A stretch of DNA of 64,000 nt from an uncultured Candidatus Saccharibacteria bacterium (GCA_964616255.1 CAZTQW010000006.1:2389-66388); one strand, 5' to 3'. Shown: positions 3,910-53,438, counted from the stretch's first letter. The notes: a model not told the origin generated them from the letters alone. Made by a program: numbers and translations.

Positions 3910-6801
<2,892 letters not shown>

Positions 6802-26505: not shown

Positions 26506-26547
26506 TCAGATATTATAACATATTCGCGCGAAGTTTTAGCTCTGAGC

Positions 26548-26751
26548 TTCGTCCGTAACGGGTGGCTGAGCCTTAATAATAGTGCTCTAAAAAACTTTGG
26601 CCACGTTGGCCACAATTGGTCGCGCACTAGTGCTAATCTCGGATCGCCAATTAATGCACGGGCTTATTATATTGCATTTAGCAATCCACCTGTTGATTCA
26701 TCTATAATCAGTGCTCGGTTTTACGGTTTCCCCGTCCGCTGTTTGGTATAC
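26548..26751 (+). repeat. Cassette C1: start-less CLec/FISUMP-like C-terminal segment
   Basis: 204 nt, stop-free: FVRNGWLSLNNSALKNFGHVGHNWSRTSANLGSPINARAYYIAFSNPPVDSSIISARFYGFPVRCLVY; ends shared with C2 and C3. Confidence 0.85.
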
Positions 26752-26790
26752 CAGTTAATCTTCTGTACTACTTTTCTCAGTCCGCGTGAA

Positions 26791-27028: not shown

Positions 27029-27079
27029 CTAGCATAAATTGAGAGAAATTAACAAGCATATCCGTGATGTTTTTTATTA

Positions 27080-27283
27080 GTATACTAAACAGCGGACGGG
27101 GAGACCATACCAACGACTGTAATTAGCAGATGGGTTAACACCTGAAGCAGTGAAAGCAAGATTATAAGTATTGGCTGAAGTAGGAGATGAATAACTAGTA
27201 GGATTTTTTGACCAACCATGACCATCATGGCCGAATCGCCTCATAGTACTATTATTAAGATTAACCCACCCGCTACGGACGAA
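27080..27283 (-). repeat. Cassette C2: start-less CLec/FISUMP-like C-terminal segment
   Basis: 204 nt plus TAA: FVRSGWVNLNNSTMRRFGHDGHGWSKNPTSYSSPTSANTYNLAFTASGVNPSANYSRWYGLPVRCLVY*. It lies just past the terminator of the upstream gene. Confidence 0.85.
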
Positions 27284-27296
27284 GTAATCCCGATCG

Positions 27297-29674: not shown

Positions 29675-30538
29675 ATGAAAATTTTGAATGGTGCTGAGTT
29701 GGCGGGTTACATGAAAGCAAATCAAGCTCACCAGGTGCGTGTCCTAAGGGCGGGAAAGATTCAGCCGAAGCTTGTGATTATTCGTGATAGCGACCAGGCT
29801 GTGATCGCGAAGTATGTAAAACTAAAGCGGAAATACGGTGAGGATATTGGAGTTGTGGTCGAAGATCTTTTAGTTGATGATGTCGCGAATGCTATTGACG
29901 AAGTGAACAAACGCGAAGATGTGCACGGTATGATTGTGCAATTACCACTGAAAAATATCAGTGGTACTAATGAGATAATTGGCCAAATTGATCCCGCGAA
30001 GGACGTTGATGGTTTGGCAACCTATATTCATCTAGTGAATAATGCTAAAAATGTTTATTCATCTGGTGATATATCTCTTGATAAGAATCAGTCGTGTTTT
30101 GAATCGGCGACAGCTACGGCAATTAACTGGTTGATGGCGGGGTATAATATTAAATTGCAGGGCTGCAAGATTGCTATTGTGGGTCACGGAAGGCTAGTGG
30201 GCGCCCCGCTAGAACGAATGTGGCAGAATTCGGGCTATGATGTGCGGGCCTTTAATAAAGGCGACAATCTAACTGAATTGCGAAATTTTGACGTAATTGT
30301 GAGCGCAACCGGTGTACCGCATTTAATTAAAAGTAGTATGGTAAAGCCTGGTGCCGTAGTCGTGGATGCTGGAACGGCGAGTGAAGACGGAGTGTTAGTG
30401 GGCGATGTAGAAGACTCGGTACGAGAGAGGGCTGATCTTAAGGCCATCACTCCGAAAGTTGGCGGTGTAGGACCTTTGACAGTGGCCGCTTTGTTCGAGC
30501 ATGTGCTAATAGCTACAAATAATGCAATTGCAAAATGA
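29675..30538 (+). CDS. folD: Bifunctional methylene-THF dehydrogenase/cyclohydrolase
   Basis: GMIVQLPL, IDPAKDVDGL, IVGHGRLVGAPL, ITPKVGGVGPLTVAALF. Confidence 0.95.
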   Translation: MKILNGAELAGYMKANQAHQVRVLRAGKIQPKLVIIRDSDQAVIAKYVKLKRKYGEDIGVVVEDLLVDDVANAIDEVNKREDVHGMIVQLPLKNISGTNEIIGQIDPAKDVDGLATYIHLVNNAKNVYSSGDISLDKNQSCFESATATAINWLMAGYNIKLQGCKIAIVGHGRLVGAPLERMWQNSGYDVRAFNKGDNLTELRNFDVIVSATGVPHLIKSSMVKPGAVVVDAGTASEDGVLVGDVEDSVRERADLKAITPKVGGVGPLTVAALFEHVLIATNNAIAK

Positions 30539-30579
30539 CGACGTTATTTCTACATGTCACCGTGTGGTAAAATAGAATA

Positions 30580-30996
30580 GTAAGTTTCGAACTTATGGGA
30601 CCCAGAGGGACTATTTTGAGTAAAAGGCTCCAGCACCCCGAGGCTCTCTTGTTAATATAGATCGTGAAGTTACTCTCTAAACATTCCTGAAAGAATTATG
30701 AGGCCAGAAGATTGATCAAGACCACGGCCTTGATTATATCAAGCTAACTTCTTCATCAAGCCACCAACGATATAGTTTGTACTTAATTTTCCCTTTCGTC
30801 CGTAGCGGGTGGGTTAATCTTAATAATAGTGCCTTGAGGTCATTCGGTTATAACGAAAATGTTTGGTCTCGCTCTGCAGCCGCCTACTCTTCCCCTACTT
30901 CAGCCACCGCTTACAACCTCAACTTTGACCCCGCAGGTGTCAACCCGTCCAATGGCCCGAAAAATCGTTGGAACGGTTTCCCCGTCCGCCTTTTTT
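30580..30996 (+). ncRNA. Candidate stand-alone ~415-nt RNA: structured leader plus cassette C3
   Basis: Extended -10 TGGTAAAAT at 30565-30573; hairpins at 30581-30595, 30701-30730 and 30729-30743; terminator-like GGAACGG/CCGTCC followed by TTTTTT at 30970-30996; no downstream + strand gene. Confidence 0.5.
30795..30989 (+). repeat. Cassette C3: CLec/FISUMP-like segment, Asn-codon rich (template-repeat-like)
   Basis: FVRSGWVNLNNSALRSFGYNENVWSRSAAAYSSPTSATAYNLNFDPAGVNPSNGPKNRWNGFPVR. The first 36 nt are identical to C2; it diverges from C1/C2 right after CCCCGTCCGC. Confidence 0.85.
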
Positions 30997-31017
30997 GTCG
31001 CGGTTCGGTGCCGATCT

Positions 31018-33015
31018 TTATTTGCCATGCACAAAATCCACAATAATTTGGGCTACTTTTTCTTTGCCTGCCAAGGCATTAATGCACAGATCATAATTCT
31101 CTGGTCTCCCCCATCTTTGTCCGGAAATCAGTTCGTAATATTCAGATCGTTTACGATCAGATTGCTCCATATTTTTTCGAGCTGCCTTTGCGTCGTCGCA
31201 GTACATTTCTTGAATATTTTTTATCCGGTATTGTTCTGGAGCATAAATATGCACTCGCACAACTTCTGGAAAATTACGCAGGACGTAATCAGCAGCTCGA
31301 CCAACAATTACACAGCTTCCTTGCTTAGCAATCTCTTTTAAAATTACGTCTTGAGCTTCAATGGCATATTTAGCTGGTGAAGTTGTCAAATAAAGTTCGT
31401 GTAAAACTTCTTGCTCATCATTACTGTTAACTTTATTAATATAATCTTTGGTCAAACCACTTTTCTCGGCCGCCAATGCTGTCAGCTCTTTGTAATAATA
31501 CGGAATGTTTAATTCTTTTGCAACCAACTCGCCAATCTTTTTGCCTTGGGAACCATGTTGACGCGAAATTGTGATAATAGGACCAGGATGCGAAGTTTGA
31601 ATCGCTGCATCTTCTGTTGTAGACCTTGCCACAGTATCCAAACGACGGAAATATGCAATCGCCAAAGTAGAAGCGATAATGATACCAATCACATCTGCTA
31701 CTGGCGCCGCCCAAAGAATACCATTAATATTATTCATGATGCGCGGCAGTATTAATACCAATGGAACAAAGAGAATAATATCGCGCGATAGTGAGACAAT
31801 GGCAGCCCTAAGTGGTTCACCAACAGCTTGAAAGAAAATTGAAATTACCTTAATGCCACAAGTAAACGTAATCAACATGAGAAAAATCCGGAAGGTCAGA
31901 GTTGCAAACTGCATATACAACTCAGGATTCTCGGAGTTAGAGCCGAAGATGCGGATAATTGGCTCTGGGCAAAATTCAAAAATAATTGTAGCGACTAGAC
32001 CAACAATCACTGTAGCTATCATGCATTTGCGGAAAGTTTCACGCACGCGTGCTGTGTTACCAGCACCGATATTGAAGCCAAGTATTGGTTGCGCACCAAT
32101 AATAATGCCCATCGCGATGCTCAAGACAATGGTAAACACCTTCATACAGATACCGATGATTGCTAATGGATCATTTGCACCGTATTCAGAGTTTGCTCCG
32201 TAAATGGCGAGCATTTTGTTACAAACCATGGAAATAACTACGATGGATAGCTGCGTGATTAAGGTGGAGATTCCGAGCTTTACGATATTGCTCATGACTT
32301 GACTTTGTGGCTTGAAGCTAGCAAGAGAAAGTTTAAAAGTTTTAGTACGAGTAAGGTAAATAATCGAAATAATGAGAGTTACAATTTGACCGGTAATGGT
32401 GGCCCAGGCGGCACCTTGAATGCCCCAGTTGAGTGCAAAGATAAAAATCGGATCGAGAATAATATTAGTGATCGCTCCCGCGACAGTAGCAATCATAGCA
32501 AAAGCTGGTGAACCATCGGCGCGAATCACCGAATTTAGCATGTAGCCCAACATATAAACTGGGAAAAAACTTAAAATGATAAAGAAATACTGCCTAGCAT
32601 AAACAATGTTATCTGCACTGGCTCCAAATAGCCCTAAAATTTGGTCTGCAAAAACAAATCCTAGTACCACTAAAACAATGCTAATCAAAAACGTGATGAG
32701 CGCACTGCCACCAACGGCATGATGTGCGTTCTTCGTATCTTTGCGCCCTTGGCAAATCGATAGAAAGGCAGCGGTACCATCGCCGAACATACCCGAAAGT
32801 GCCACTGCGGCTAAAGTCAGTGGAAACACAATTGAAGTAGCTGCGTTACCGACGGCTCCCAGGCCCTCAGCTGTACCATGTCCAATAAAGATTTGGTCAA
32901 CGATATTATAAAGTGACGTAATTAATAGTGCTAAAATGCACGGTATAGAAAATTCTAATAACAATTTTGAGATTTTTGCTTGACCAAGATATTTATTGTC
33001 TTTTCCACTATCCAT
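31018..33015 (-). CDS. MATE family efflux transporter fused to a C-terminal cytidylate-kinase-like domain
   Basis: LYNIVDQIFIG, IRADGSP, NIILDPIFIF (MATE), followed by ITISRQHGSQGKKIG...GSCVIVGRAADYVL. Confidence 0.9.
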   Translation of the reverse strand: MDSGKDNKYLGQAKISKLLLEFSIPCILALLITSLYNIVDQIFIGHGTAEGLGAVGNAATSIVFPLTLAAVALSGMFGDGTAAFLSICQGRKDTKNAHHAVGGSALITFLISIVLVVLGFVFADQILGLFGASADNIVYARQYFFIILSFFPVYMLGYMLNSVIRADGSPAFAMIATVAGAITNIILDPIFIFALNWGIQGAAWATITGQIVTLIISIIYLTRTKTFKLSLASFKPQSQVMSNIVKLGISTLITQLSIVVISMVCNKMLAIYGANSEYGANDPLAIIGICMKVFTIVLSIAMGIIIGAQPILGFNIGAGNTARVRETFRKCMIATVIVGLVATIIFEFCPEPIIRIFGSNSENPELYMQFATLTFRIFLMLITFTCGIKVISIFFQAVGEPLRAAIVSLSRDIILFVPLVLILPRIMNNINGILWAAPVADVIGIIIASTLAIAYFRRLDTVARSTTEDAAIQTSHPGPIITISRQHGSQGKKIGELVAKELNIPYYYKELTALAAEKSGLTKDYINKVNSNDEQEVLHELYLTTSPAKYAIEAQDVILKEIAKQGSCVIVGRAADYVLRNFPEVVRVHIYAPEQYRIKNIQEMYCDDAKAARKNMEQSDRKRSEYYELISGQRWGRPENYDLCINALAGKEKVAQIIVDFVHGK

Positions 33016-33316
33016 TTTGTCTCCTTTTGAATTCTAACATTTTGCCCAGTTGCGGAAAAGCACACAGTCTAACAATTATATGCTTTCTGGAAGATTACAA
33101 GCTGGGTTAATTCTTTATATTCTACTCAAGTCTGAAAATCGCGGCAAGTTGTGAATTTTACAACATTTTTTTCATTTTATTATTAACCAATGCCGCGACT
33201 ACTGATTTTGCGATCATTTTGATGTGGTATTTTTAGAAAAAAGTGGTATAATGAAAGATGGTGTCTTATACAGTACCTTATGAATTCGTTATATTAATCG
33301 TCTCGGATTTTTAGAT

Positions 33317-33368
33317 TATCTGGCAGTACTAGGGCTGGGAGAGTTCCTGTTTCTAGTACTGCTAGATA
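33317..33368 (+). promoter_or_regulatory. 16-bp stem hairpin in a 5' UTR
   Basis: TATCTGGCAGTACTAG / CTAGTACTGCTAGATA (one G-T pair), between TGGTATAAT (about 33244) and the GGAGG SD of ORF 33399. Confidence 0.7.
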
Positions 33369-33398
33369 GCAGAAATAAATATAGAGGAGGCATTTATA

Positions 33399-34064
33399 AT
33401 GAAAAATGCGCAAAAACAAACTGTTGGTACAAGTGACAAGGATACTAGTCCGAAACGTAGCTGGAACTTCTTTCCTAAGACAGCTAAGGAAATACCGCCA
33501 GTGAATGTGCTGCAGGAGTGGGGGAGAAAAAATCTGCAGTATATGGTCAAATATTGGGAAACGGTTTTAGCCAAAGGTGGTCATGCCACTGCTTGCTTAC
33601 TCCCGACCGACGTCATATGTCAGCTCACACAAAATATCGGGCAGGCCTTGATTTTGGCAGATGACGCATTTCCGTTGATTCCCGATCTGAGATTAGAAGA
33701 TAATTGGGTGGAAATTGGAGAGACCTTGATTTCATACGAGATTATCTGTGAGGCTGGGGCGCAGTATCGTAAGCTGAAACCTTATCCGGCAACCATACTG
33801 GGCTTCACAAAGTCCGAGCTGCCACCCGAGACTCGAGAGATTGAGCTTCAGATCGTCGAGAAAGATGCAGATTGTGGCTTTGATCAGGTGGTATACGATC
33901 TGTATTCGCCGTATATCATGAAAAATGCTGAAGTAGCATACTTCAGCTCGTATCCGGATGCGATTACTGTATGGTCAGATCTTTGCGGCATCTTTTACCA
34001 TGCTTTTCGCTTGAATAGCGAAATGAAAGGTGTATTAAGACGGTACTTTAACGCAGAGGCATAG
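33399..34064 (+). CDS. Orphan hypothetical protein (221 aa)
   Basis: GGAGG SD, own promoter and downstream terminator; no family recognised. Confidence 0.75.
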   Translation: MKNAQKQTVGTSDKDTSPKRSWNFFPKTAKEIPPVNVLQEWGRKNLQYMVKYWETVLAKGGHATACLLPTDVICQLTQNIGQALILADDAFPLIPDLRLEDNWVEIGETLISYEIICEAGAQYRKLKPYPATILGFTKSELPPETREIELQIVEKDADCGFDQVVYDLYSPYIMKNAEVAYFSSYPDAITVWSDLCGIFYHAFRLNSEMKGVLRRYFNAEA

Positions 34065-34083
34065 ATTATATAACGGATTTTCG

Positions 34084-34111
34084 AGTCCCGGCTGAACAGT
34101 CGGGACTTTTT
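34084..34111 (+). terminator. Intrinsic terminator
   Basis: AGTCCCGGCT-gaac-AGTCGGGACT followed by TTTT. Confidence 0.85.
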
Positions 34112-35897
34112 AATCGCGCTTAAGCATTACCGTAAAAGCTTCACTAGGAATATCAATTTTGCCAAAACGTTTCATACGAGCTTTACCGCGTTTTTGTTTT
34201 TCTAGTAATTTGGCCTTACGATCGCGATCGCCAGTATGGATCTTTACAGTCACATCTTTGCGATAAGCACCGATGGTCTCTCGCGCAATAATCTTTGCTC
34301 CAATCGCCGCTTGCAGAGCCACCTCGTAATTTTGACGAGGAATAACTTCTTTAAGTTTTTTTGTAATTTCCCTGCCTAGAGCATCAGCTTCGCTGCGATG
34401 GCACATGAGGCTAAGTGCGTCCATACGATTCCCGGCCACCAGAAAATCCAAACGCACCAAATCCTCTGGACGATAATCGCAGAGTTCGTAATTAAAACTG
34501 GCATAGCCCGAAGTGATACTCTTAAGTTGATCATAGAAGTCCGTAAGTAAATTTGCCATAGGCGCTTCAAAATCAATCACGGCACGATCCTCAATATAAC
34601 TCAAGTTGGTTTGGTGGCCGCGCTTTTCGTTAATCAGATTCAGCACCCCGCCAATCATATTCTGCGGTAAGATAATTTCGCCCTTGACCCACGGTTCGCG
34701 AATTTCGAGAATGCTTGATTGATCTGGCAAGTCAGCCGCCGAGCGAATGTTTAATTCCTCACCGGCCGCAGTCGTCACTTCGTAATTGGTTGATGGGTTG
34801 GTGATGATTAAATCGAGATTGAATTCGCGCTCTAAGCGCTCTTTGATGATATCCATATGTAGCAATCCCAAAAATCCAATGCGCAGGCCAAAGCCTAGGA
34901 CAGGAGAATTTTCCGGTTCGTAGACCAGCGCTGAATCGGACATTGCTAGCTTTTCGACAGCCTCTTTGAGGTCATCATATTGGTCGTTAGAAACAGGAAA
35001 GAAACCGGCATAGACAAAAGGCAAGACGTTTTTGTAACCGGGAAGAGGCTGCTCGGCGGGAGCTTTAGCCAAGGTGATAGTATCGCCAACCTTAGCCTCA
35101 CGCGTAGTTTTGAGATTGGTCACGATATAGCCAATAGCACCTTCATCAAGAAAATCTCTGGGGCTCATTTTGGGAGTTAATACCCCTACTTCTAAGGCTA
35201 GGCCATTAACTTCCGCAGCCATCATGCGAATTTCGTCGCCCTTCATCAACTTGCCGGCAAAAATCCGCACATAGAGCACCACCCCACGATAATCATCAAA
35301 GTAGGAATCGAAAATCAGGGCACGCAGTTTGGGCGCAGTTTCAAGTTTGGAGCCTCGGGGAGCGGGAGCCCTTGTGACAATTGCATCTAGAATTTCGGTG
35401 ACACCTTGGCCAGTTTTGCCGGAAGCCAGGATAATTTCTTCGCGCGGGCAACCAAGAAGATTAATAATCTGCGCACTAACTTTTTCCACGTCCGCAGCTG
35501 GCAGGTCTACCTTATTGATGACAGGAATAATGTATAAATCTTGTTCTAGGGCTAGGTAGACATTAGCTAAAGTTTGTGCTTGAATTCCCTGAGTAGCATC
35601 AACTACTAGTACCGCAGTCTCGACGGCCTGGAGCGAACGCGAAACTTCGTAAGAAAAATCAACGTGCCCGGGAGTATCTATTAAGTTGAGCTCGTAGCCG
35701 CGCAAGTGCATTTGTACAGGAGTAAGTTTGATCGTAATACCCTTTTCGCGCTCAAGCTCCATCGAGTCTAGCAACTGAGACTTCATCTCACGTTTAGAGA
35801 CAGTACTAGTCAGCTCCATCATACGATCGGCAATGGTTGACTTGCCGTGGTCGATATGAGCAATAATGCAGAAATTACGAATTTTATCGGGGTCCAT
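34110..35897 (-). CDS. lepA: Elongation factor 4 (LepA)
   Basis: IRNFCIIAHIDHGKST, EREKGITIK, LIDTPGHVDF, GFLGLLHMDI, KLLEKQKRGK; start corrected to ATG 35897. Confidence 0.98.
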   Translation of the reverse strand: MDPDKIRNFCIIAHIDHGKSTIADRMMELTSTVSKREMKSQLLDSMELEREKGITIKLTPVQMHLRGYELNLIDTPGHVDFSYEVSRSLQAVETAVLVVDATQGIQAQTLANVYLALEQDLYIIPVINKVDLPAADVEKVSAQIINLLGCPREEIILASGKTGQGVTEILDAIVTRAPAPRGSKLETAPKLRALIFDSYFDDYRGVVLYVRIFAGKLMKGDEIRMMAAEVNGLALEVGVLTPKMSPRDFLDEGAIGYIVTNLKTTREAKVGDTITLAKAPAEQPLPGYKNVLPFVYAGFFPVSNDQYDDLKEAVEKLAMSDSALVYEPENSPVLGFGLRIGFLGLLHMDIIKERLEREFNLDLIITNPSTNYEVTTAAGEELNIRSAADLPDQSSILEIREPWVKGEIILPQNMIGGVLNLINEKRGHQTNLSYIEDRAVIDFEAPMANLLTDFYDQLKSITSGYASFNYELCDYRPEDLVRLDFLVAGNRMDALSLMCHRSEADALGREITKKLKEVIPRQNYEVALQAAIGAKIIARETIGAYRKDVTVKIHTGDRDRKAKLLEKQKRGKARMKRFGKIDIPSEAFTVMLKRD

Positions 35898-35952
35898 AAG
35901 TATAATTATAACACATTTTGGCAGCTTGGAGCATACTAGTATTTTCGCATCT

Positions 35953-35970
35953 TTCGTCTGTAGCGGGTAG
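35953..35970 (+). repeat. C4: decayed 5' end of the cassette family
   Basis: TTCGTCTGTAGCGGGTAG versus TTCGTCCGTAGCGGGTGG (16/18); located in the lepA-tilS intergenic gap. Confidence 0.55.
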
Positions 35971-36021
35971 CTGCGTCCGGAGGACTTTATAATAGTTGGC
36001 GACATGATATAATCGGTCTTA

Positions 36022-36966
36022 ATGAAAGTTATATTGGCGGTTTCTGGCGGGGTGGATTCGATGGTAATGCTAGATCTTTTTATGCATCATGTGAATAATT
36101 CTGATAATTGTTATTCATCTGGTGATATAATTGTTGCTCATTTTGATCACGGCATACGCGAGAATTCAGTCCTTGACGCAGAATTCGTCCGACATACATC
36201 TTTAGCGTATGGTTGCAAATTTTATCTTGGGCAGGCTAAACTTGGCGACCAGGCTTCTGAGGCTATGGCTCGCGAAAACCGTTATAATTTTCTTCGTCAG
36301 CTTGCCGTCGAGCAAAGCGATGATGGGCAGCCGGTGCAAATCGCGACTGCGCATCATCTGAACGATTTAGCAGAAACCGTTATCGTAAATTTTCTGCGTG
36401 GTACCGGCTGGCGCGGACTAGCCGCCTTAGATAGCTCCGGCATTCTGCGGCCGTTTCTTGAGCCAAACTTCTTTGCTAATATTACAAATCATGAAATTTG
36501 GAGCAAACAAGACATTCTGCGTTATGCTGGCGAGCATCAAATTGTTTTTCGCGAGGATCAGTCTAATTCATCTGATGCATATTTGCGTAACCGCATACGT
36601 CAACAAATGAATAATTCTATTAACTTTGAAAAAATTTTTCAACTCTGGAAACAACAGAAGGATCTGAAAAAAGCGATTGATCAGACCATAGATGGTCTTT
36701 TGCTGCCAGATAATTCTGAGTGGCCAAGAACGTGGTTTCAGAATTTAGATCAGGATATGCTTGATCGAGAAGTTGCTTTGGAGCTTTTGCGGGCTGGAAC
36801 TTTGCAGGTCGGTATTTCGGCTACTCGCCCGCAACTGGAAAATTTGCGTCAAGCAATTTTAAGTTATAAGCCGGGGAAATATTTTAATTTACCAGGAGAT
36901 AAATTAGTGAAGATGAAAAAGAATTCATTTGCTTTATCTGAAGAATCACTTATGGCTGGGCAATAG
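36022..36966 (+). CDS. tilS: tRNA(Ile)-lysidine synthetase
   Basis: LAVSGGVDSMV, AHFDHGIR, ARENRYNFL, TAHHLNDLAET, LRNRIR. Confidence 0.95.
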   Translation: MKVILAVSGGVDSMVMLDLFMHHVNNSDNCYSSGDIIVAHFDHGIRENSVLDAEFVRHTSLAYGCKFYLGQAKLGDQASEAMARENRYNFLRQLAVEQSDDGQPVQIATAHHLNDLAETVIVNFLRGTGWRGLAALDSSGILRPFLEPNFFANITNHEIWSKQDILRYAGEHQIVFREDQSNSSDAYLRNRIRQQMNNSINFEKIFQLWKQQKDLKKAIDQTIDGLLLPDNSEWPRTWFQNLDQDMLDREVALELLRAGTLQVGISATRPQLENLRQAILSYKPGKYFNLPGDKLVKMKKNSFALSEESLMAGQ

Positions 36967-38026
36967 CTGCGTAATATTCTTCCAAAGTCAGATTCTCGGC
37001 ACTGATAGCTTGGGCGGCTTCATCACCAACGTAGCGCAAATGCCAGGCTTCAAAGTCGTATCCAGTCAGTTCAACTTTGTCTTCGGGATAACGCAAAATA
37101 AAACCGAATTCTGTTGCATGATTAGCCAGCCAGTCAGCAGCCGGAAGATTTGCAAAATTAGTCGTGGTGGCACCTGGCACAAACACATCAATAGCATAAC
37201 CCGTCTGATGCTCAGAAAATCCTGGCTTGGCTGCGTAATTCGGCGCCTCTGCTTCCCCCACCTGTTCAGCCCAACTCTGGAAGACTAATGCTTGGTCTTC
37301 ATAGCTACGATAACCAGAGGTAACGTAGAGTTGAAAACCCGCCGAGAGGGCTGCGGCATACAACTCCTCGAATTTTTCATAGGCTGTACTCTGCATGGTC
37401 AGACCGGGAGTGCCATATGCGGCGCTAATCGTAGTTAGATCTGGCACGAAATCCGCTTCAAGATAATAATATTTATTAACCAAGATAAGCGAGCCATACT
37501 CGAGTACTGCAGGCTGAGTATGGGTATAAAATTCGTAGTCGCGATTAGCATTGACTAAAGAAACTATTTGGCTACTAGATATAGCGGTTGACTCGTTAGT
37601 AATCTGAGAGTTTTCGAGCTGAGCAAAATAACGTTCTTTACGATCAGAAAGATAGTATGGTTCTTGCATAATCTGCAACATAGCCAGGGAGTAAATACGA
37701 TCAGGCTCAAAATCCCGATGATTTACCAATGCGACTGTTTCAGCACTATTCAAAGGGTTCTTCTCCAAGGCTAGTAGGTAGGTATCGAGCTTGGACTCGT
37801 CAAAATTAGTATCTCGGATAAGGTTGACAAAATCGTCATGGTGCGCATGCGCTAAGACTACATTAAGACTCTCGGGGTTAACTTTTTCGAGAATAACTGC
37901 ACTGTCCTGCGCAGAGTAACCGTGGCGCTGCAATTTTTGAGCGGGCGAAAAGTAATGAAAGGCTATACCTATGAGAGAGCTTATCAATAAGACCGAAATT
38001 CCAGTAGCTAACCAGGATTTTTTCAT
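36950..38026 (-). CDS. Membrane-anchored D,D-carboxypeptidase (VanY/M15B family)
   Basis: SGYRSYEDQ, PGFSEHQTGYAID (SxHxxGxAxD), EAWHLRYVG; N-terminal anchor. Confidence 0.9.
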   Translation of the reverse strand: MKKSWLATGISVLLISSLIGIAFHYFSPAQKLQRHGYSAQDSAVILEKVNPESLNVVLAHAHHDDFVNLIRDTNFDESKLDTYLLALEKNPLNSAETVALVNHRDFEPDRIYSLAMLQIMQEPYYLSDRKERYFAQLENSQITNESTAISSSQIVSLVNANRDYEFYTHTQPAVLEYGSLILVNKYYYLEADFVPDLTTISAAYGTPGLTMQSTAYEKFEELYAAALSAGFQLYVTSGYRSYEDQALVFQSWAEQVGEAEAPNYAAKPGFSEHQTGYAIDVFVPGATTTNFANLPAADWLANHATEFGFILRYPEDKVELTGYDFEAWHLRYVGDEAAQAISAENLTLEEYYAAIAQP

Positions 38027-38077
38027 AGCTTTATTATAACATGTGCTATAATAGCAATATCTAAAGTGGAGTTTATC

Positions 38078-38914
38078 ATGATTAAGAAAGCAATTATTCC
38101 GGTAGCTGGTTGGGGTACTCGTAGATTGCCAATTACGAAGATTATTGAGAAGTCAATGCTCCCCGTGGGGAATCGACCTCTGGTAGATTATTCTGTGCAA
38201 GAGCTAATCCGGGCGGGAGTAACTGATATATATATGGTGATATCCAATGTTGAACCTTGCCAGGTAAAGTCGTTTTATCGGGATAATTTGGCTCTGAATC
38301 AATACCTAATCGATCGTGGCAAAGCCGATCGCCTGGAGCTAGCCAAGACTCTCCCAGAAAACGTTAAAATCCATTATGTGACTCAGGATCCGGCGGGTAA
38401 GTATGGCACCGCGGTACCAATAGCTATGGTAGTCGAGGAGTATTCAATTAATGAGCCGGTTTTGGTGTTTATGGGTGATGATTTCGTTTGGAACCCTGAA
38501 GGAGAGTCGGCCAGCGAATCTCTTCTCCAATCAATCCAAAGTGATGACGAATCGGCTATTCTTGGGGTAGAAGTTGAGCCCAAACAAGTCGATAAGTATG
38601 GAGTTTTATCGGTTGAAGATGGTAAATTAACTGGCATCGTAGAAAAACCAGCTGTCGACGAAGCTCCTTCTAATTTAGTCAATGTTAGCAAATACATTAT
38701 GTCACCAAAGTTACTCCAAGAAATCGTCGAATACGTGAATGCGAATGATTTTGGGCCAATGGATCAAGAATATTTGGTCACGGATCCAATTGCCAGCTAT
38801 TTACAACATGGAGGTACTATGCGAGTGGCACCTACTAATGGAGAGTTTCTCGATGGAGGGAGTGTAGAAGGTTGGCTCCATGCTAATAATGTCGTATGTG
38901 GGTATCAGGGTTAA
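38078..38914 (+). CDS. Sugar-phosphate nucleotidyltransferase, GalU-like copy 2
   Basis: KAIIPVAGWGTRRLPITK, GTAVPI, VFMGDD, IVEKP; the ORF track starts at GTG 38066. Confidence 0.85.
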   Translation: MIKKAIIPVAGWGTRRLPITKIIEKSMLPVGNRPLVDYSVQELIRAGVTDIYMVISNVEPCQVKSFYRDNLALNQYLIDRGKADRLELAKTLPENVKIHYVTQDPAGKYGTAVPIAMVVEEYSINEPVLVFMGDDFVWNPEGESASESLLQSIQSDDESAILGVEVEPKQVDKYGVLSVEDGKLTGIVEKPAVDEAPSNLVNVSKYIMSPKLLQEIVEYVNANDFGPMDQEYLVTDPIASYLQHGGTMRVAPTNGEFLDGGSVEGWLHANNVVCGYQG

Positions 38915-38981
38915 ATAAAGTGTTATTCATCTGGTGATATAATTTTTAGCAGATTTTTCGGTTCTATGATATAATGAGTAT

Positions 38982-40580
38982 ATGAAAAAACAGCAGCATA
39001 TCCCTAGCTACCAGGCTTCGATTGGTCGTGTAGTAACAAAATTAAGAACCGAAAAAGGCTGGACGCAAGCTGATCTGGCGGAGGCGATTGGTAGTAGCCA
39101 GTCGGCAATTCATCGCATAGAAAAGGGTCATCAAAATGTTTCTTTGGAACAAATCAGGAAGCTTTCTCGAGCTTTAGGCAGCCAGATTCTCTCTATAAAT
39201 GACACAGTTTCGCAAAGTTATCGTATCAATGGCGGAAAAGAGCTTCATGGTGAAGCGACGATTAATTCTAGCAAAAATGCCGCTGTTGCTTTGCTTTGTA
39301 CTTCGTTATTAAATTCTGGGGTAACGAAGTTAAAGCATGTTGCGAGAATTGAGGAAGTTTTTAGAATTATCGAAGTCCTGGAATCGCTGGGTGTGAAATG
39401 CCGCTGGATTAATGAGAATCGTGATCTAGAAATTATATCACCAGATGAATTAGATTTAGAAAATATTAACGTGGAGGCAGCTCGCAAAACTCGTTCTATC
39501 TTGATGTTTATGGGTCCATTACTGCATAAGTTTCACCGCTTTCGTTTGCCCTATGCAGGTGGTTGCACCTTGGGGACACGGACGATTGAGCCGCATCTAA
39601 GAGCTTTGTCGGCTTTTGGGCTGAAGGTAGACGCAACGAGTTGTAGTGGTTTCTATGAAGCGAGTGTCAAGCCGCCTAAACGACCATTGAATAAAGATGC
39701 CGCCTATATCGATCAGGTCGATATTCCCTTCCCACCGAAGCGCATTGTCTTGATCGAGCGAGGCGACACGGTGACGGAGAACGTTTTGATGGCAGCTGCA
39801 CTCTATCCAGGGGAGACAACCATTGTCGGAGCCTCTTCAAATTATATGGTGCAGGATTTATGTTTCTTCTTGGAAAAACTGGGAGTAAAGATACGTGGTA
39901 TCGGATCAACAACGTTGCGAGTGCAAGGTCAGGCACAGATTAATATGGACGTAGAATATTCGCCGGCTGAAGATCCCATTGAAACCATGTCTTTTATCGC
40001 GGTGGCCCTGGTGACGAAGTCAAATTTGACAATTCGGCGAGCACCCATTGAGTTTCTAGAGATTGAGCTAGAAATTCTTAAAAGCATGGGGGCAAAGATC
40101 GATCGTTCACCAGAATATTATAGTGCAAATGGGCGCACCCGGTTAGTTGATCTGAAAATTCACAAATCAAAGTTAGTGGCACCAACCGACAAAATTGCCC
40201 CAATGCCGTTTCCGGGTTTAAATATTGATAATCTGCCGTTCTTTTCCGTAATTGCGGCTACTGCTGAGGGACGAACTTTGATTCACGACTGGGTGTTTGA
40301 AAACCGAGCAGTCTATGTAACATATTTAGAGAATCTTAATGCTAAAGTTGAGCTACTTGATGCTCATCGTGTCTATGTTGAGGGGCCGACTAATTGGCGT
40401 GCTGCCGAGCTGGTAGCGCCTCCAGCTTTAAGGCCAGCCGTGGTAGTTTTGATAGCGATGTTGGCAGCACCAGGAACTTCCATTCTACGAAATATTTATT
40501 CTATCAATCGTGGATACCAAGATTTTGCTGAGAGATTAGATCAATTGGGGGCAGATATTAAGCCGCTGATGGGAATTTAG
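38982..40580 (+). CDS. murA: UDP-N-acetylglucosamine 1-carboxyvinyltransferase with N-terminal XRE HTH domain
   Basis: HTH (LRTEKGWTQADLAEAIGSSQSAIHRIEKG) followed by SSKNAAVALL, PYAGGCTLGTR and PFPGLNIDN. Confidence 0.93.
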   Translation: MKKQQHIPSYQASIGRVVTKLRTEKGWTQADLAEAIGSSQSAIHRIEKGHQNVSLEQIRKLSRALGSQILSINDTVSQSYRINGGKELHGEATINSSKNAAVALLCTSLLNSGVTKLKHVARIEEVFRIIEVLESLGVKCRWINENRDLEIISPDELDLENINVEAARKTRSILMFMGPLLHKFHRFRLPYAGGCTLGTRTIEPHLRALSAFGLKVDATSCSGFYEASVKPPKRPLNKDAAYIDQVDIPFPPKRIVLIERGDTVTENVLMAAALYPGETTIVGASSNYMVQDLCFFLEKLGVKIRGIGSTTLRVQGQAQINMDVEYSPAEDPIETMSFIAVALVTKSNLTIRRAPIEFLEIELEILKSMGAKIDRSPEYYSANGRTRLVDLKIHKSKLVAPTDKIAPMPFPGLNIDNLPFFSVIAATAEGRTLIHDWVFENRAVYVTYLENLNAKVELLDAHRVYVEGPTNWRAAELVAPPALRPAVVVLIAMLAAPGTSILRNIYSINRGYQDFAERLDQLGADIKPLMGI

Positions 40581-41782: not shown

Positions 41783-42742
41783 GTGGGTATGTTAGAGATT
41801 GAATCCTTTAAACCTGAAGATAGGTGGTTAGACGAAACAGAGGCTAATGAATGGGACGACGAAGATGCGGCGGAAGATGAAGCTGCAGAAATAGCAGGAA
41901 TAGCAGGAGTCGATGTCAAGGATCAGGCTAAAGTATCGATTCCTGCTGGCAACAAGTCTGATTCCGTGGTCGATCAGCGGCGCCGCGAAGCTGAGTTGAT
42001 TTATGGTTCTGAAGAAGAAGTTTCGGGGGTGATGGCAAAGGATTGGCTGAGATTAACTGAGCAGCCGGATTATTATTCAATCACAAAGATGACCGCCGGA
42101 GTGCGCGATCCTAATCGAGTGAATATCTTTCTTGATGGGCATTTTGCCTTTTCGTTAGATGTCACTCAAACCGTAGATTTTGGTTTGAAAGTTGGTCAGC
42201 ATATCTCGCCAAAGAAGCTTGAAAAGCTCAGGCGCGCTTCGGAATTTGGCAAGCTATATCAGCGGACTCTGGAGTGGGTGGTTAGTCGGCCGCACTCCGT
42301 GCGGGAAACTAGGGATTATTTGCGTAGACGACAAATTAAGCGCAAAATGCTCAATCGACAGCGCGTAAAAGAGGAGAAGAAACCTCTAGCGGAAATTGAA
42401 GATGATGTGATGCAGTTAGTGCTCGAGAGATTGGTTGAGAAAAAATTTTTAGACGATCGTAAATTCGCGGAATTTTACGTCGAGAATCGTTACGTTCGCA
42501 AAGGGATTAGCCAAAAGCGCCTGCGTATGGAACTAGCACAAAAAGGTGTCGATCATGATATTGCAGCGGCGGCCATGCAAAAAATCCCTCGTGACGAACA
42601 AGAAGAAATGGCAAAAATGATTGCGAAAAAACGCAAGAAATATCCTGATGATTTTCGTTTAATCGGGTACTTGGTGCGGCAGGGATTTGGGTTTCAGGCG
42701 GCAAAAGAAGCAGTGGAGGCTTCGCATCAGCCAGATGAATAA
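41783..42742 (+). CDS. recX: RecX regulatory protein with acidic N-terminal extension
   Basis: Directly follows recA; RPHSVRETRDYL, LDDRKFAEFYV, LRMELAQKGV, YLVRQGFGF. Confidence 0.88.
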   Translation: MGMLEIESFKPEDRWLDETEANEWDDEDAAEDEAAEIAGIAGVDVKDQAKVSIPAGNKSDSVVDQRRREAELIYGSEEEVSGVMAKDWLRLTEQPDYYSITKMTAGVRDPNRVNIFLDGHFAFSLDVTQTVDFGLKVGQHISPKKLEKLRRASEFGKLYQRTLEWVVSRPHSVRETRDYLRRRQIKRKMLNRQRVKEEKKPLAEIEDDVMQLVLERLVEKKFLDDRKFAEFYVENRYVRKGISQKRLRMELAQKGVDHDIAAAAMQKIPRDEQEEMAKMIAKKRKKYPDDFRLIGYLVRQGFGFQAAKEAVEASHQPDE

Positions 42743-49932: not shown

Positions 49933-51144
49933 ATGAATAATGAGTTAATTCTTCCGAAACAAACTGCCAATCTAGATGTTTTTGATGCGACTCTGAAAAT
50001 TTATAGTGAAGCTAATGGTGCATGGGTGACAAATCGCAATTATAAAGACCGCATTCAAGAATTAGTTCCCCGTCTCACGACTGGAGCACGCGATGAGGCT
50101 TTCATGGTCAAACAATCGGAGATGGCGCGCTATTTTGGCTTCGTGGAGTATGATTTCGAGCAACACCGAGCACGGATTACCTCTACTGGAAAAGAATTCT
50201 ACGAAGCTCGAATTAATCATGATCAGCCGAAGATTAATGATTTAATTTTGCAGGCAATTCTGCATCACAGTTTTGGTCGCAATAATTCAGCAATCAAAGG
50301 TAGCAATTCTGATGTCGACCCACCAAAACTGTTCGTAAAGGCAATTCTGGATACTACAGAAATTGACGATGACTCGGAAAGCGAAACTAGCGATGTGACT
50401 GATGGCATTAACAGAACTGATTTAGCTTATTTAATCTATTTGACTCACGATAAAGGAATTAGTTATGAAGATGCAATTAACTTGTTGCTCGGCTATTACA
50501 CTCTGCCAGCAGATTTGCCAAATAAATACACGGATGTGAAATTTCCCAAATTTCTGAAAAACTTAGGAATCGTACTCACGCATAATGGAAATTATCTTCT
50601 GAGTCCGGAAATCATGCTCCAATATGCTGAGCAAATTAAAAATCTTACTATTTATAATACTAATCATGCTAGCGAAATTACCAATGAAGATCTTGCGCAT
50701 GAGGCGATCATGCAAGCTACGGAGTATCCGAATTTAGAAAGTGATGATTTTATTAAGCAGAATGAACGCGAACCAGTCAAAGTCGTGAACACGCAAACCA
50801 CCTACAAGCGAGATGCGCGCCTCGCCAAAACCGCACTAGTGCGATCAAATTATAAATGTCTGCTCGATGAGGATCATACGACTTTTCCAGACAAAGATGG
50901 TCATTCTTATGTCGAGGCACATCATTTGATTCCGATGTCGGCCCAAAAAGATTTTGACATCAACATTGATCGTATAGAAAACATTGTTTCGCTTTGCCCA
51001 AATTGTCATAGGGCGATTCATTATGGCGACGATGCTACGAGACGCAGTTTATTAGAAAGATTATATGACCTGAAACGAGCTGATTTTGCGCAAGCCGAAC
51101 TCGATATTAGTTTTGATGATCTTTACAAAAAATATTATGCGTAA
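49933..51144 (+). CDS. Putative restriction endonuclease with C-terminal HNH domain
   Basis: CLLDEDHTTF...YVEAHHLIPM...NIVSLCPNCHRAIHYG; convergent with two C5 methyltransferases. Confidence 0.8.
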   Translation: MNNELILPKQTANLDVFDATLKIYSEANGAWVTNRNYKDRIQELVPRLTTGARDEAFMVKQSEMARYFGFVEYDFEQHRARITSTGKEFYEARINHDQPKINDLILQAILHHSFGRNNSAIKGSNSDVDPPKLFVKAILDTTEIDDDSESETSDVTDGINRTDLAYLIYLTHDKGISYEDAINLLLGYYTLPADLPNKYTDVKFPKFLKNLGIVLTHNGNYLLSPEIMLQYAEQIKNLTIYNTNHASEITNEDLAHEAIMQATEYPNLESDDFIKQNEREPVKVVNTQTTYKRDARLAKTALVRSNYKCLLDEDHTTFPDKDGHSYVEAHHLIPMSAQKDFDINIDRIENIVSLCPNCHRAIHYGDDATRRSLLERLYDLKRADFAQAELDISFDDLYKKYYA

Positions 51145-52288
51145 GCCGGCAGCCGTGTGTGAGCTCGAGAGCGATATTCTTTACTAGCATTGGTGGAATA
51201 CCTTCACCAATAACTTGGCGCACTAGTCGATCTTCGGCCCATTCTGGAATACCCCAATCAGTCGGCAGAGAAAAAACAATCAAAAGTTCATAAATCGTCA
51301 AACACCGAGCATCGGAATAAATTCGCACACCGTCAGCATCATGGCCCAGGCATTTGCCGGGGTGAACACAACACAATGACGAGATTACACCATTGTTTTG
51401 TGTAATCGTACGAGCAGGCTTATCCCATTCAAAACGTCGATAGGTATTATAATGACCATTCACCCGCTCGCCGTTATCTTTTTTAGGATAATAGACTGGG
51501 TTATGGAAGGCCGTCTCGCCCGTAGGAGTATGCATCATCGTAATCACGTGTTTTTTAGCATGAACTGGCGGGTGGTGAAATTTTGACAGAGCTTCGGCCT
51601 GTTCTTTTTTGTCATAAAAATCTGGAAAAAGCTTCAAGGTCTCGTCAATTCCCTCGCGTAACATGGGGTCCACAGACGGCAAATGATAAAGAGCCTTGCG
51701 TAAATTAATATGCGGCTTAGGCGCGGGCATCTGCCAAGTGTAAGATAAATCTTTGCGCGACAGGAGAAAAATATTACGCCGACGCATCTGTGGAACTTCA
51801 TAATCCATAGCACTAACTAAACTCTGATCAGCAAAATTATAGTCAGGTGCCAATTCTTGCTTGATATATTCGGGGATCATCATGGTCTGCTCACGCACAT
51901 GAATCTCGGTTTTGAGAAGTTGCGGAACGTTTTCGAGCAGGACGTACTTCGGCTTCAGTTCCTTAATCATCTTCACCGCATAAAAAATTAGTTGATTGCG
52001 CTCATCGTAACGATCACGTTTGCCCGCCAGACTCATGCCTTGGCAAGGCGGAGTAGCAATGACGAAATCCACTTGTTGCCGACGAGCACGTTGTAAAATT
52101 TGTGCAAAAACCGCTTCATCAGCAATGTCACCAGTAATGACTTCCGTCGCCGGATACAAATACTGATAAAATCGGGAACGTGTTGGATCGATTTCATTAG
52201 CTATGACAATATCAATACCACAATCATGTAGGTAGGTTTCGGCAATACCGACATTGGCGAAGAGGGACAGGCCGCGTAATCTATTCAT
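51107..52288 (-). CDS. DNA (cytosine-5)-methyltransferase 2
   Basis: Motif I SLFANVGIAE, catalytic PPCQG, ENV, QMRRR, motif X GEGIPP. Confidence 0.95.
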   Translation of the reverse strand: MNRLRGLSLFANVGIAETYLHDCGIDIVIANEIDPTRSRFYQYLYPATEVITGDIADEAVFAQILQRARRQQVDFVIATPPCQGMSLAGKRDRYDERNQLIFYAVKMIKELKPKYVLLENVPQLLKTEIHVREQTMMIPEYIKQELAPDYNFADQSLVSAMDYEVPQMRRRNIFLLSRKDLSYTWQMPAPKPHINLRKALYHLPSVDPMLREGIDETLKLFPDFYDKKEQAEALSKFHHPPVHAKKHVITMMHTPTGETAFHNPVYYPKKDNGERVNGHYNTYRRFEWDKPARTITQNNGVISSLCCVHPGKCLGHDADGVRIYSDARCLTIYELLIVFSLPTDWGIPEWAEDRLVRQVIGEGIPPMLVKNIALELTHGCRLTHNIFCKDHQN

Positions 52289-53416
52289 GGATCCTCACTA
52301 ACTCTTGCATAATATTCTTTACTAGCATTGGTGGAATACCTTCACCAATAACTTGGCGCACGAAATGCTCGGAAGCCCAGCTCGGTATATTCCAATTATC
52401 TGGCAAAGACATAATACGCATCAACTCAAAAACCGTCAGCACGCGCGCATCAGAATAAATATCGAAGCCGTCCTGGTCTTTACCAAGGTAGTGCCCAGGG
52501 TGAACGTTATTCTGCGAGCCAATTGTGCGATTATACATCGTAATAGTATAACCCGGTCGATCCCAAGCCTGACGCTTGTAAGTATTTTTAAAACCTTTGA
52601 CCAATGTGCCATCTTTTTTTCTAGGCTTAAACCGGTCGATATTACGAAAGGCCGTCTCACCCGTAGGAGTATGCATTAAACTAATGACCTGACGATAAAT
52701 ATGTTTGGGAGGATAGTGCCAAGGTGAGACTTTCAGCCCAGCGACCTTTTTTTGCTCAAAATCAGGAAAGAGCTTTTTCCGCTCCGCTAAAGGCAAGTCG
52801 TGCACTTCGGGATCTAGTGATGGTAAGTTGCCAATTGCTTCGGCCATAGTAATAATATGTTCATGCTTGGGTGGGGTATGCCAGACATAAGGCAAATCTT
52901 TGCGGGTTAAAAGCATAATTGCGCGCTCGCGAGTTTGCGGTACACTATAATCTTCTGCATTCATAACGAATTGACTGTTGAAGTTATAGTTTTCGCCCAG
53001 TTCTTGCTGCACATAATCCGGTATCAAAACTTTATCACCTCGATAAGGAATACATGTGCGCAGTTGCTCGGGCACGTTCTCTAAAAAGACGTACTTCGGC
53101 TTCAGTTCCTTAATCATCTTGACGGCATAAGTAATCAAGAAGTTACGTTCGTCATTCTGATCCTTCTTTCCGGCCGTACTCATTCCCTGGCAGGGCGGAG
53201 TGGCCATAATCAAATCAACCGACTGCTGCCTAGCATAGTCTAAAAGACATTCCTGGACAGCGCTATCCTTGATGTCCCCCGTGACCATTTTTGTCTGGGG
53301 ATACAAATGCTGATAAAATCGGGAACGTGTTGGATCGATTTCATTAGCTATGACAATATCAATACCACAATCATGTAGGTAGGTTTCGGCAATACCGACA
53401 TTGGCGAAGAGGGACA
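51174..53416 (-). repeat. Identical DNA blocks shared by the two methyltransferase genes
   Basis: 107 bp (52163-52269 = 53310-53416), 33 bp (51941-51973 = 53088-53120) and 50 bp (51174-51223 = 52312-52361). Confidence 0.9.
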
Positions 53417-53438
53417 TTGCCTTGATTTTTGGTCGCAT
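52281..53438 (-). CDS. DNA (cytosine-5)-methyltransferase 1
   Basis: SLFANVGIAE, PPCQG, ENV, QTRER, GEGIPP; paralog of the adjacent gene. Confidence 0.95.
   Translation of the reverse strand: MRPKIKAMSLFANVGIAETYLHDCGIDIVIANEIDPTRSRFYQHLYPQTKMVTGDIKDSAVQECLLDYARQQSVDLIMATPPCQGMSTAGKKDQNDERNFLITYAVKMIKELKPKYVFLENVPEQLRTCIPYRGDKVLIPDYVQQELGENYNFNSQFVMNAEDYSVPQTRERAIMLLTRKDLPYVWHTPPKHEHIITMAEAIGNLPSLDPEVHDLPLAERKKLFPDFEQKKVAGLKVSPWHYPPKHIYRQVISLMHTPTGETAFRNIDRFKPRKKDGTLVKGFKNTYKRQAWDRPGYTITMYNRTIGSQNNVHPGHYLGKDQDGFDIYSDARVLTVFELMRIMSLPDNWNIPSWASEHFVRQVIGEGIPPMLVKNIMQELVRIHE

Follow-up and report, generated by a model that had tools for sequence, protein, structure and literature searches.

A predicted operator motif at murA, folD and tilS in Saccharibacteria that encode an HTH-MurA fusion

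We describe a short DNA motif in a 64,000-nucleotide stretch (the window throughout) from an uncultured Candidatus Saccharibacteria bacterium (GCA_964616255.1, CAZTQW010000006.1:2389-66388). By sequence comparison, the window is assigned to a rodent-gut member of the Saccharibacteria, with its nearest species-representative genome at ~80-82% DNA identity. The motif recurs in folD, in tilS and at murA, which encodes the enzyme MurA fused to a helix-turn-helix (HTH) domain, and it is predicted to be a protein-binding site rather than a coincidence of coding; the common factor among its copies is the DNA and not the peptide. Genes in their vicinity are murB, folD, a MATE/cytidylate-kinase-like fusion, lepA, tilS, a VanY-type peptidase gene, a nucleotidyltransferase gene, murA, recA and recX. 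Coordinates of the individual features are listed in Table 1.

Motif copies, architecture and the general promoter

Four exact copies of a 16-mer core, TTCATCTGGTGATATA, begin at 30058, 36114 and 38926 on the plus strand and at 39434 on the minus strand. All copies of this type in the window are confined to 9.4 kb, and their count was reached by no shuffle (0 expected); the expectation is 0.64 for matches with zero to three mismatches and 0.01 for the exact 12-mer. A longer 24-mer, TGTTATTCATCTGGTGATATAATT, has the same letters in tilS (36109-36132) and upstream of murA (38921-38944) and reappears on the minus strand (39431-39454) with two mismatches. In folD and tilS, a partner copy that is degenerate and more symmetric than the full copies lies 31 bp 5' of the main copy (TATTCATCTAGTGAATA and TATGCATCATGTGAATA, respectively). 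The resulting double units of the two genes are 80% identical over 56 nt, with 41/49 bases alike including part of the spacer.

These copies had been reported in a first-pass annotation of the window. A motif scan with shuffles re-found all four with the same coordinates and sequences, along with the degenerate partners 31 bp upstream and the 41/49 identity between units. The annotation's statement that no other full copies occur in the 64-kb window likewise holds, the only addition being the exact left half at the end of recX, where the TTA of TTATTCATCTGG supplies the stop codon; this is an exact 12-mer for which 0.53 matches are expected at up to one mismatch. An assembly artefact was ruled out, as contigs of independent metagenome runs span all copies and leave the region unchanged: those of runs X1 and X2 have 0 differences, and X5 represents a ~99%-identical strain. 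These contigs show no rearrangement joints at the copies. The full tilS copy lies ~90-110 nt 3' of the tilS start, and L050, one of the related loci examined, carries a good copy pair, 32 bp apart, at the place orthologous to the weak tilS copy.

Table 1. Motif copies and associated features in the window, with positions counted from its first nucleotide
Feature	Position	Strand	Description
folD unit 1	30025..30041	+	TATTCA-TCTAG-TGAATA, arms a perfect palindrome; inside the 10-residue insert YIHLVNNAKN
folD unit 2	30056..30073	+	Full copy, TATTCATCTGGTGATATA; read as YSSGDI
tilS unit 1	36081..36097	+	TATGCATCATGTGAATA; inside a ~14-residue segment missing from L050 TilS
tilS unit 2	36112..36131	+	Full copy, TATTCATCTGGTGATATAAT, 31 bp past unit 1; read as YSSGDII
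Weak degenerate tilS copy	36596..36613	-	TATTCATTTGTTGACGTA, peptide RQQMNN, C-terminal half; weak assignment
Primary murA site	38924..38943	+	TATTCATCTGGTGATATAAT: left arm TATTCA, 5-nt spacer, right arm an extended -10 (TGATATAAT)
Second murA promoter	38967..38975	+	TGATATAAT, 6 nt, ATG at 38982; leaderless; without left arm
HTH-murA gene	38982..40580	+	Candidate motif binder
Intra-murA site	39434..39451	-	AATTCATCTGGTGATATA then AT; gene reads EIISPDEL; 510 bp from the promoter site
recX half copy	42731..42742	-	TTATTCATCTGG then cTGATG at the recX 3' end; TAA stop inside the left arm

The clade consensus is TATTCAY-N3-RTGATATAWT, a short bipartite site with unrelated flanks. In a profile of 67 copies, the information content is limited to ~22 bp (A-W-TATTCATCTGGTGATATA-W-T-T) and falls to background outside, which marks the motif as a site and not a 100-bp element. 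When TTCATCTGGTGATATA was scanned against 185,579 species genomes, Saccharibacteria and Nanosyncoccus accounted for 30 of the 80 matches listed with titles, on which our taxon counts rest; as these taxa form a tiny fraction of the database, this is a strong enrichment. Extra conserved flanking bases occur only in Saccharibacteria/Nanosyncoccus among the matches listed.

The rules for arms and spacer were drawn from partner copies that had not themselves caused a locus to be retrieved. Against an expectation of ~16, 52 such extra sites were counted, and in 14 the arms are perfect. Conservation covers the arms TATTC(A/G) and TGATATA(A/T)T; position 7 never deviates from a pyrimidine and position 11 rarely from a purine, whereas the three bases between them vary freely. 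Copies are very often paired, direct or inverted, with a spacing of 31-33 bp (three helical turns) at 12 places in the window and its relatives. The density is low, with one or two exact copies per 100-250 kb contig of relatives (about one per 100 kb), and 383 kb of relatives' loci yielded few more beyond the site for which each locus was chosen. A genome would accordingly hold tens of sites rather than thousands.

The right arm, RTGATATAAT, is the same as the general extended -10 promoter of this genome (RTGNTATAAT), and the extended -10 that had been read in the motif from the outset is thus a general promoter element. The window holds 28 TGNTATAAT elements where 3.4 would be expected; in 11 of them the start codon of a long open reading frame comes 5-8 nt further on, and three precede tRNAs. 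This placement shortly before gene starts implies that transcripts are largely leaderless. RNA polymerase by itself might then account for the motif, if the copies were strong, possibly bidirectional promoters that give internal or antisense transcripts, such as an RNA antisense to the first 450 nt of murA. The identity of the right arm with the promoter consensus speaks for this explanation, as does the internal murA copy of L005 and L100, TGGTATAAT, which amounts to a change at the free position of TGNTATAAT. The left arm, however, is missing from the 25 other TGNTATAAT promoters in the window, and the comparison with relatives (below) adds further objections, so that we regard a polymerase-only origin as quite unlikely.

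The common layout of promoter and start is TGNTATAAT, 6 nt, ATG, without a Shine-Dalgarno sequence (for example 36005-36024, 38967-38984, 5515-5532 and, on the minus strand, 1782-1768). A 24-nt repeat family, D7, is merely this promoter-plus-start signal. The start of lepA (34110-36005, minus strand) is probably near 35890, giving 595 amino acids just past TGTTATAAT at 35905-35913 on the same strand; the upstream ATG at 36005 yields a mechanical reading frame of 631 amino acids. If the start is near 35890, the lepA and tilS promoters would be divergent with ~100 bp between them.

The HTH-MurA fusion and its promoter across relatives

The murA product features an XRE/HTH_3 domain at residues ~12-70 (DNA 38982-39200; Pfam HTH_3, 6e-15) and a UDP-N-acetylglucosamine 1-carboxyvinyltransferase at residues 78-527 (Pfam EPSP_synthase, 5e-42; NCBIfam MurA, 2e-92). 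The closest solved relatives of the HTH, namely C.BclI, C.AhdI, HipB, ClgR and SinR, are dimeric operator-binding proteins. The fused architecture is present in all 120 homologues listed, and the HTH is encoded by 80 of 80 metagenome murA loci that were retrieved with the catalytic-domain peptides IHDWVFE and ERGDTVTE, a sample that is blind to the motif.

The orthologous site upstream of murA was recovered from 8 of 8 GTDB murA loci and from nearly all 80 metagenome loci. Where protein identity reaches 64% or more (46 loci), the site precedes the beginning of the protein match by 26-70 nt and has no more than two arm mismatches in all cases but two. The exceptions are L264, with almost no upstream DNA, and L269 and L279, with variant arms (AATACCATCTGTGATATA in L269). 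In many metagenome loci, the right arm itself is the murA promoter (...GTGATATAAT-N6-ATG or TATAAT-N6-ATG, leaderless). A more distant clade features a perfect dyad, TATATCA-N4-TGATATA or TATACCA-N4-TGATATA, between a canonical TTGAC -35 and the -10, and in contigs of ~70% GC the murA-promoter dyad is replaced by ATCTCA-N4-TGAGAT.

The contigs with this last operator (L298, L301, L303-L305, L307-L310, L312 and L314) encode an HTH-MurA ~60% identical to that of the window. At 67-72%, their GC content is far above that typical of Saccharibacteria, and exchange with another phylum, in either direction, is possible.

The recognition helix is near invariant (T-S-Q-S-A-I/V-H/N-R-I-E), and its few changes appear to accompany changes in the arms. 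SQSAIHRIE occurs with TAT[T/G]CA and TGATATA; SQSAINRIE occurs with TATGCA, TATACCA or TATATCA, each paired with TGATATA; and SQSAVNRIE occurs with ATCTCA and TGAGAT, the exchange of isoleucine for valine accompanying a symmetric T-to-G and A-to-C change in the arms. A dyad that is kept on the promoter of an HTH gene through such divergence, with both arms changing together, is the pattern typical of a dimeric repressor that controls its own gene.

The same observations bear on the two readings that leave the HTH of MurA aside. For RNA polymerase acting alone, it is a point in favor that the right arm is the murA promoter itself in L100, L013 and many metagenome loci. The dyad of the other clade, in contrast, sits between the -35 and the -10 and so is no promoter element, the high-GC clade has ATCTCA-N4-TGAGAT, and the symmetric change in two arms together with the 32-bp pairing points to a dimeric binder. 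Alternatively, the motif could be the operator of another regulator of murA and other genes, with the HTH of MurA serving some other role. All of the dyad-operator evidence fits such a regulator equally well, and the target set is wider than cell-wall genes. Nevertheless, the operator stays with the HTH-murA promoter even where clades and GC contents differ greatly, changes in its arms appear to accompany those in the recognition helix of MurA, and no other HTH gene was found to recur beside the intergenic copies in the relatives' loci; on balance, we consider a separate regulator unlikely.

A second site lies inside murA, inverted relative to the promoter site, and in relatives this inverted pair is 470-530 bp apart. 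The internal site, at +428 to +443, is found in most loci with at least 70% identity and is absent at 66% or below. The reversal of motif orientation between 38.9 and 39.4 kb, which the first-pass annotation noted when proposing a chromosome-organising site, reflects the promoter site paired with the intra-murA site, a pairing kept in most relatives whose MurA is at least 70% identical. The TATATCA/TGATATA clade (L282-L302, L311 and L313) has a second dyad of its own, AATATCAGCCTTGATATG, inside the HTH-coding region at about +130 from the match start. It lies ~150 bp downstream of the promoter site and encodes the peptide NISLDM, and its codons AAT ATC AGC CTT GAT ATG are invariant across ~17 loci of the clade. 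With downstream dyads at differing places in each clade, the pairing of a promoter site with an intragenic one has arisen at different positions. In L235-L248, a motif copy (TATTCATTATRTGATATAAT) is also present on the nucleotidyltransferase promoter, ~1 kb upstream of murA, and in this sub-clade the site between the nucleotidyltransferase gene and murA is inverted.

The inverted pair that flanks the 5' end of murA (I6) is also what an invertase would act upon, if it flipped the intervening 476-bp segment, and no copy in the window is more than 13 kb from the point near 42.75 kb where gene orientation and GC skew switch, as a chromosome-organising site of the matS, parS or Noc type might. Several results speak against both ideas. 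The parS consensus TGTTNCACGTGAAACA has no match at up to three mismatches, the motif sequence is unrelated to it, and the arms are short for recombinase sites. No inversion joints at 38.9 or 39.4 kb were seen in the contigs of four runs, which can miss rare variants, and all 200 MurA homologues and loci are intact and in one orientation. Moreover, the best-conserved position of the motif is the murA promoter, and L085 carries a copy pair beside dnaN-recF at the origin. We therefore find no support for the chromosome-organising or replication site suggested by the first-pass annotation and rate this family of explanations, invertase included, as the least probable of those weighed.

The suggestion of a DnaA-box-like element fared no better. 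Real DnaA boxes in L085 read TTWTNCACA and cluster between dnaA and dnaN, whereas the motif core TTATTCATC does not fit them and only some variants read TTATTCAC. The dnaA-dnaN spacer of L085 (5913-6151), with at least seven canonical boxes, is probably oriC, and the L085 copies form a direct pair on the recF promoter just downstream of this spacer. In the window, genes converge at ~42750 (plus strand from 28.5 to 42.7 kb, minus strand from 42.8 to 58.4 kb) and the cumulative GC skew peaks at 42-44 kb. This point could be the replication terminus; a search near the 42.75-kb skew switch gave no convincing candidate for a dif-like site.

Sites inside coding sequences

Sites in relatives occur at orthologous places upstream of and inside murA, in folD and in tilS. 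The folD unit 2 has a counterpart in L050 and L088 and a degenerate one in L084, and the tilS gene of L001 carries two copies, 33 bp apart, at the place of tilS units 1 and 2. Other genes with sites are murD (two, ~600 bp apart), murE, murB (at its 3' end), the thioredoxin reductase gene trxB (two, ~117 bp apart), argS (two), the SpoU-type methyltransferase gene trmH (two), fmt and a glycosyltransferase gene, and further sites lie upstream of tsaD, recF, ruvC and a tRNA. This makes ~15 site-bearing gene families, of which four belong to peptidoglycan synthesis (murA, murB, murD and murE). Operator-type sites are thus found at genes of MurA's own pathway, and many non-pathway genes carry them too.

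Intragenic copies occur in both orientations and several frames, reading YSSGDI in the sense direction and ISPDE or YHQMN in the antisense direction. Sense-strand sites always encode Asp-Ile (GAT ATA), often within the conserved D-I-I of TilS and the Mur ligases. The N-terminal site of murD, which is independent of how the loci were retrieved, retains identical arm codons in five of eight species (GAT TAT TCA TCN TAT GAT ATA), with the sole variable base in the spacer. The neighboring FRSPSVPP is conserved in its residues and varied in its codons; overall, identical amino acids are encoded by identical codons in 55% of cases.

Some of the sites coincide with changes in protein length. FolD of the window, L050 and L084 has a 10-residue insert with unit 1 that is missing from L088 and from solved FolD structures, while at folD unit 2 the native loop is overwritten and its length unchanged. 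The insert in TilS measures 14 residues here and 24 in L001 (two in-frame copies), and L050 has none. In MurA the motif occupies a variable stretch without insertion. Alignment with relatives thus bears out the earlier proposal of peptide inserts for FolD (~10 residues) and TilS (~14 residues), where the inserts are lineage-specific, and shows none in MurA.

Inserts of this kind raise the question of a self-propagating element, either a miniature mobile repeat resembling Rickettsia palindromic elements (RPEs) or repetitive extragenic palindromes, or an uptake signal sequence. In its favor, the copies coincide with lineage-specific inserts in FolD and TilS. The 49-bp folD and tilS units are alike even in part of the spacer, both orientations and several reading frames are in use, and Saccharibacteria are naturally competent. 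On the other hand, the conserved unit is only ~22 bp long with unrelated flanks, the sites are orthologous across species and constrained at the codon level, and the best-conserved position is a promoter. With four copies in the 64 kb of the window and, in relatives, roughly one exact copy for every 100 kb, the density is low; known uptake sequences occur about once per kb. A phage origin was tried and rejected, since the bipartite pattern in viral contigs gave chance-like matches with random spacers, and copies there are no more frequent than chance. The RPE-like repeat put forward in the first-pass annotation is hence abandoned, and self-propagation in general appears very unlikely.

Likeness to RPEs lies in the tie between palindromic DNA and in-frame peptide inserts in essential genes (FolD and TilS). 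RPEs, however, are mobile elements of ~100-150 bp; here no 100-150 bp element is present, and what the copies have in common is ~22 bp at orthologous sites under sequence constraint. Similarly, the DNA uptake sequences of Neisseria and the uptake signal sequences of Pasteurellaceae are lineage-wide short motifs in both orientations with tolerated frames in variable protein regions, but the present motif is one to two orders of magnitude less dense, bipartite with a free spacer, and anchored at a promoter.

Predicted operator model and remaining features of the window

From the conservation pattern, the motif is very probably the operator of some regulator. In our full reading, to which we assign a probability of roughly 55%, the copies would be operators of HTH-MurA itself, acting as an autoregulating enzyme-repressor that also controls the other genes with sites. 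HTH-MurA dimers, single or paired, would bind the site and repress the enzyme's own promoter by covering the -10. Additional copies would place folD, tilS and the peptidoglycan and housekeeping genes of relatives in one regulon, either serving as auxiliary operators (by looping or by cooperative binding) or roadblocks, or acting as internal or antisense promoters under regulation; this last role is conceivable because the right arm amounts to a complete extended -10. DNA binding may be modulated by the ligand state of the enzyme, as in enzyme-repressors of the BirA type. The intragenic sites may have grown from GAT-ATA (Asp-Ile) seeds, some being completed or doubled by small in-frame insertions or duplications, which would account for the FolD and TilS peptides.

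Several points weigh against this interpretation. A sequence-specific repressor would not usually be monomeric and abundant, as MurA normally is. The position of the operator next to an HTH gene is circumstantial, and the binder could be another protein. The right arm in this clade is indistinguishable from an ordinary promoter, and RNA polymerase may explain part of the conservation; the site here is also asymmetric, its left arm being one base shorter. Only two to three independent clade transitions underlie the covariation of helix and arms. The additional target genes have diverse functions (translation, one-carbon metabolism, redox and repair). Finally, the ISPDE peptide is found in 60 of 120 close MurA homologues, so that the internal site is missing in about half of them, and the N-terminal site is absent from L050 TilS. 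Individual sites can therefore be dispensed with, and the ISPDE count indicates turnover of sites rather than strict conservation of a peptide.

Known systems offer partial precedents for an HTH-MurA enzyme-repressor. BirA (with its operator bioO), PutA and NadR each combine an enzyme and a DNA-binding domain in one polypeptide and use a dyad operator over their own or a pathway promoter. HTH-MurA resembles them in joining HTH_3 and MurA in one polypeptide, with a predicted dyad operator over its own promoter, and differs in that the enzyme is MurA, which catalyzes the first committed step of peptidoglycan synthesis, the domain is of the XRE type, and many sites lie inside coding sequence. The controller (C) proteins of restriction-modification systems, HipB and SinR, to which the HTH is most closely related in sequence among solved structures, act as small XRE dimers and autoregulate from paired dyad operators over their own promoters. 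Unlike these, the HTH here is fused to a 450-residue enzyme, its predicted operator is unrelated to the GACT...AGTC C-boxes, and the sites are paired at ~32 bp and spread over a putative regulon.

Auxiliary operators inside genes are also familiar, as lac O2 lies in lacZ at +401 and gal OI in galE. The murA promoter site likewise has a downstream intragenic site (+430 to +510, or ~+150 in another clade). In this case, though, the downstream site is in the regulator's own gene, further sites lie in unrelated genes without an obvious promoter nearby, and looping is putative.

A bolder version of the model, which we advance tentatively at somewhat less than an even chance, is that HTH-MurA represents a new enzyme-repressor that is ancestral to, and nearly universal in, Saccharibacteria, and that it would sense its substrate or product, repress its own promoter and control a regulon of cell-wall, tRNA-modification, one-carbon and repair genes. 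Selection for operators within coding sequence would then have altered and lengthened FolD, TilS and MurD. We found no literature on an HTH-MurA fusion, the motif, or any Saccharibacteria regulon or operator; as coverage was incomplete, novelty is provisional. Gene regulation in Saccharibacteria and the candidate phyla radiation is almost unexplored. If the model is true, a DNA-binding MurA with a conserved operator would constitute a testable circuit in reduced epibionts, one that ties peptidoglycan precursor flux to transcription. Cis-regulatory DNA that constrains or lengthens essential proteins would also matter for how lineage-specific inserts are read in alignments. Likewise, the clade-specific operator and the TGNTATAAT-N6-ATG rule can improve the annotation of gene starts and promoters and could provide regulated promoters now that genetic tools for cultured Saccharibacteria are emerging.

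Elsewhere in the window, a search for known RNA families returned three tRNAs only. Three copies of a ~200-nt repeat, 73-87% alike, occupy 26547-26760, 27073-27284 and 30795-30994, two of them inverted and facing each other. At 30.6-31.0 kb the assembly depth in run X1 is ~4x that of the flanks, and contigs break there. The frame of the repeat is similar to the C-terminal portion of a paralogous surface-protein domain (...NGFPVR...), and the repeats may be gene fragments. On the minus strand, a single reading frame of 665 amino acids at 31018-33015 joins a MATE/polysaccharide-export-type membrane domain to a C-terminal cytidylate-kinase-like domain, an unusual fusion. Finally, two adjacent paralogues of 393 and 385 amino acids (51107-53438, minus strand) share 70-92% DNA identity in several blocks, including one 145-nt block at 92%, and represent a recent tandem duplication.

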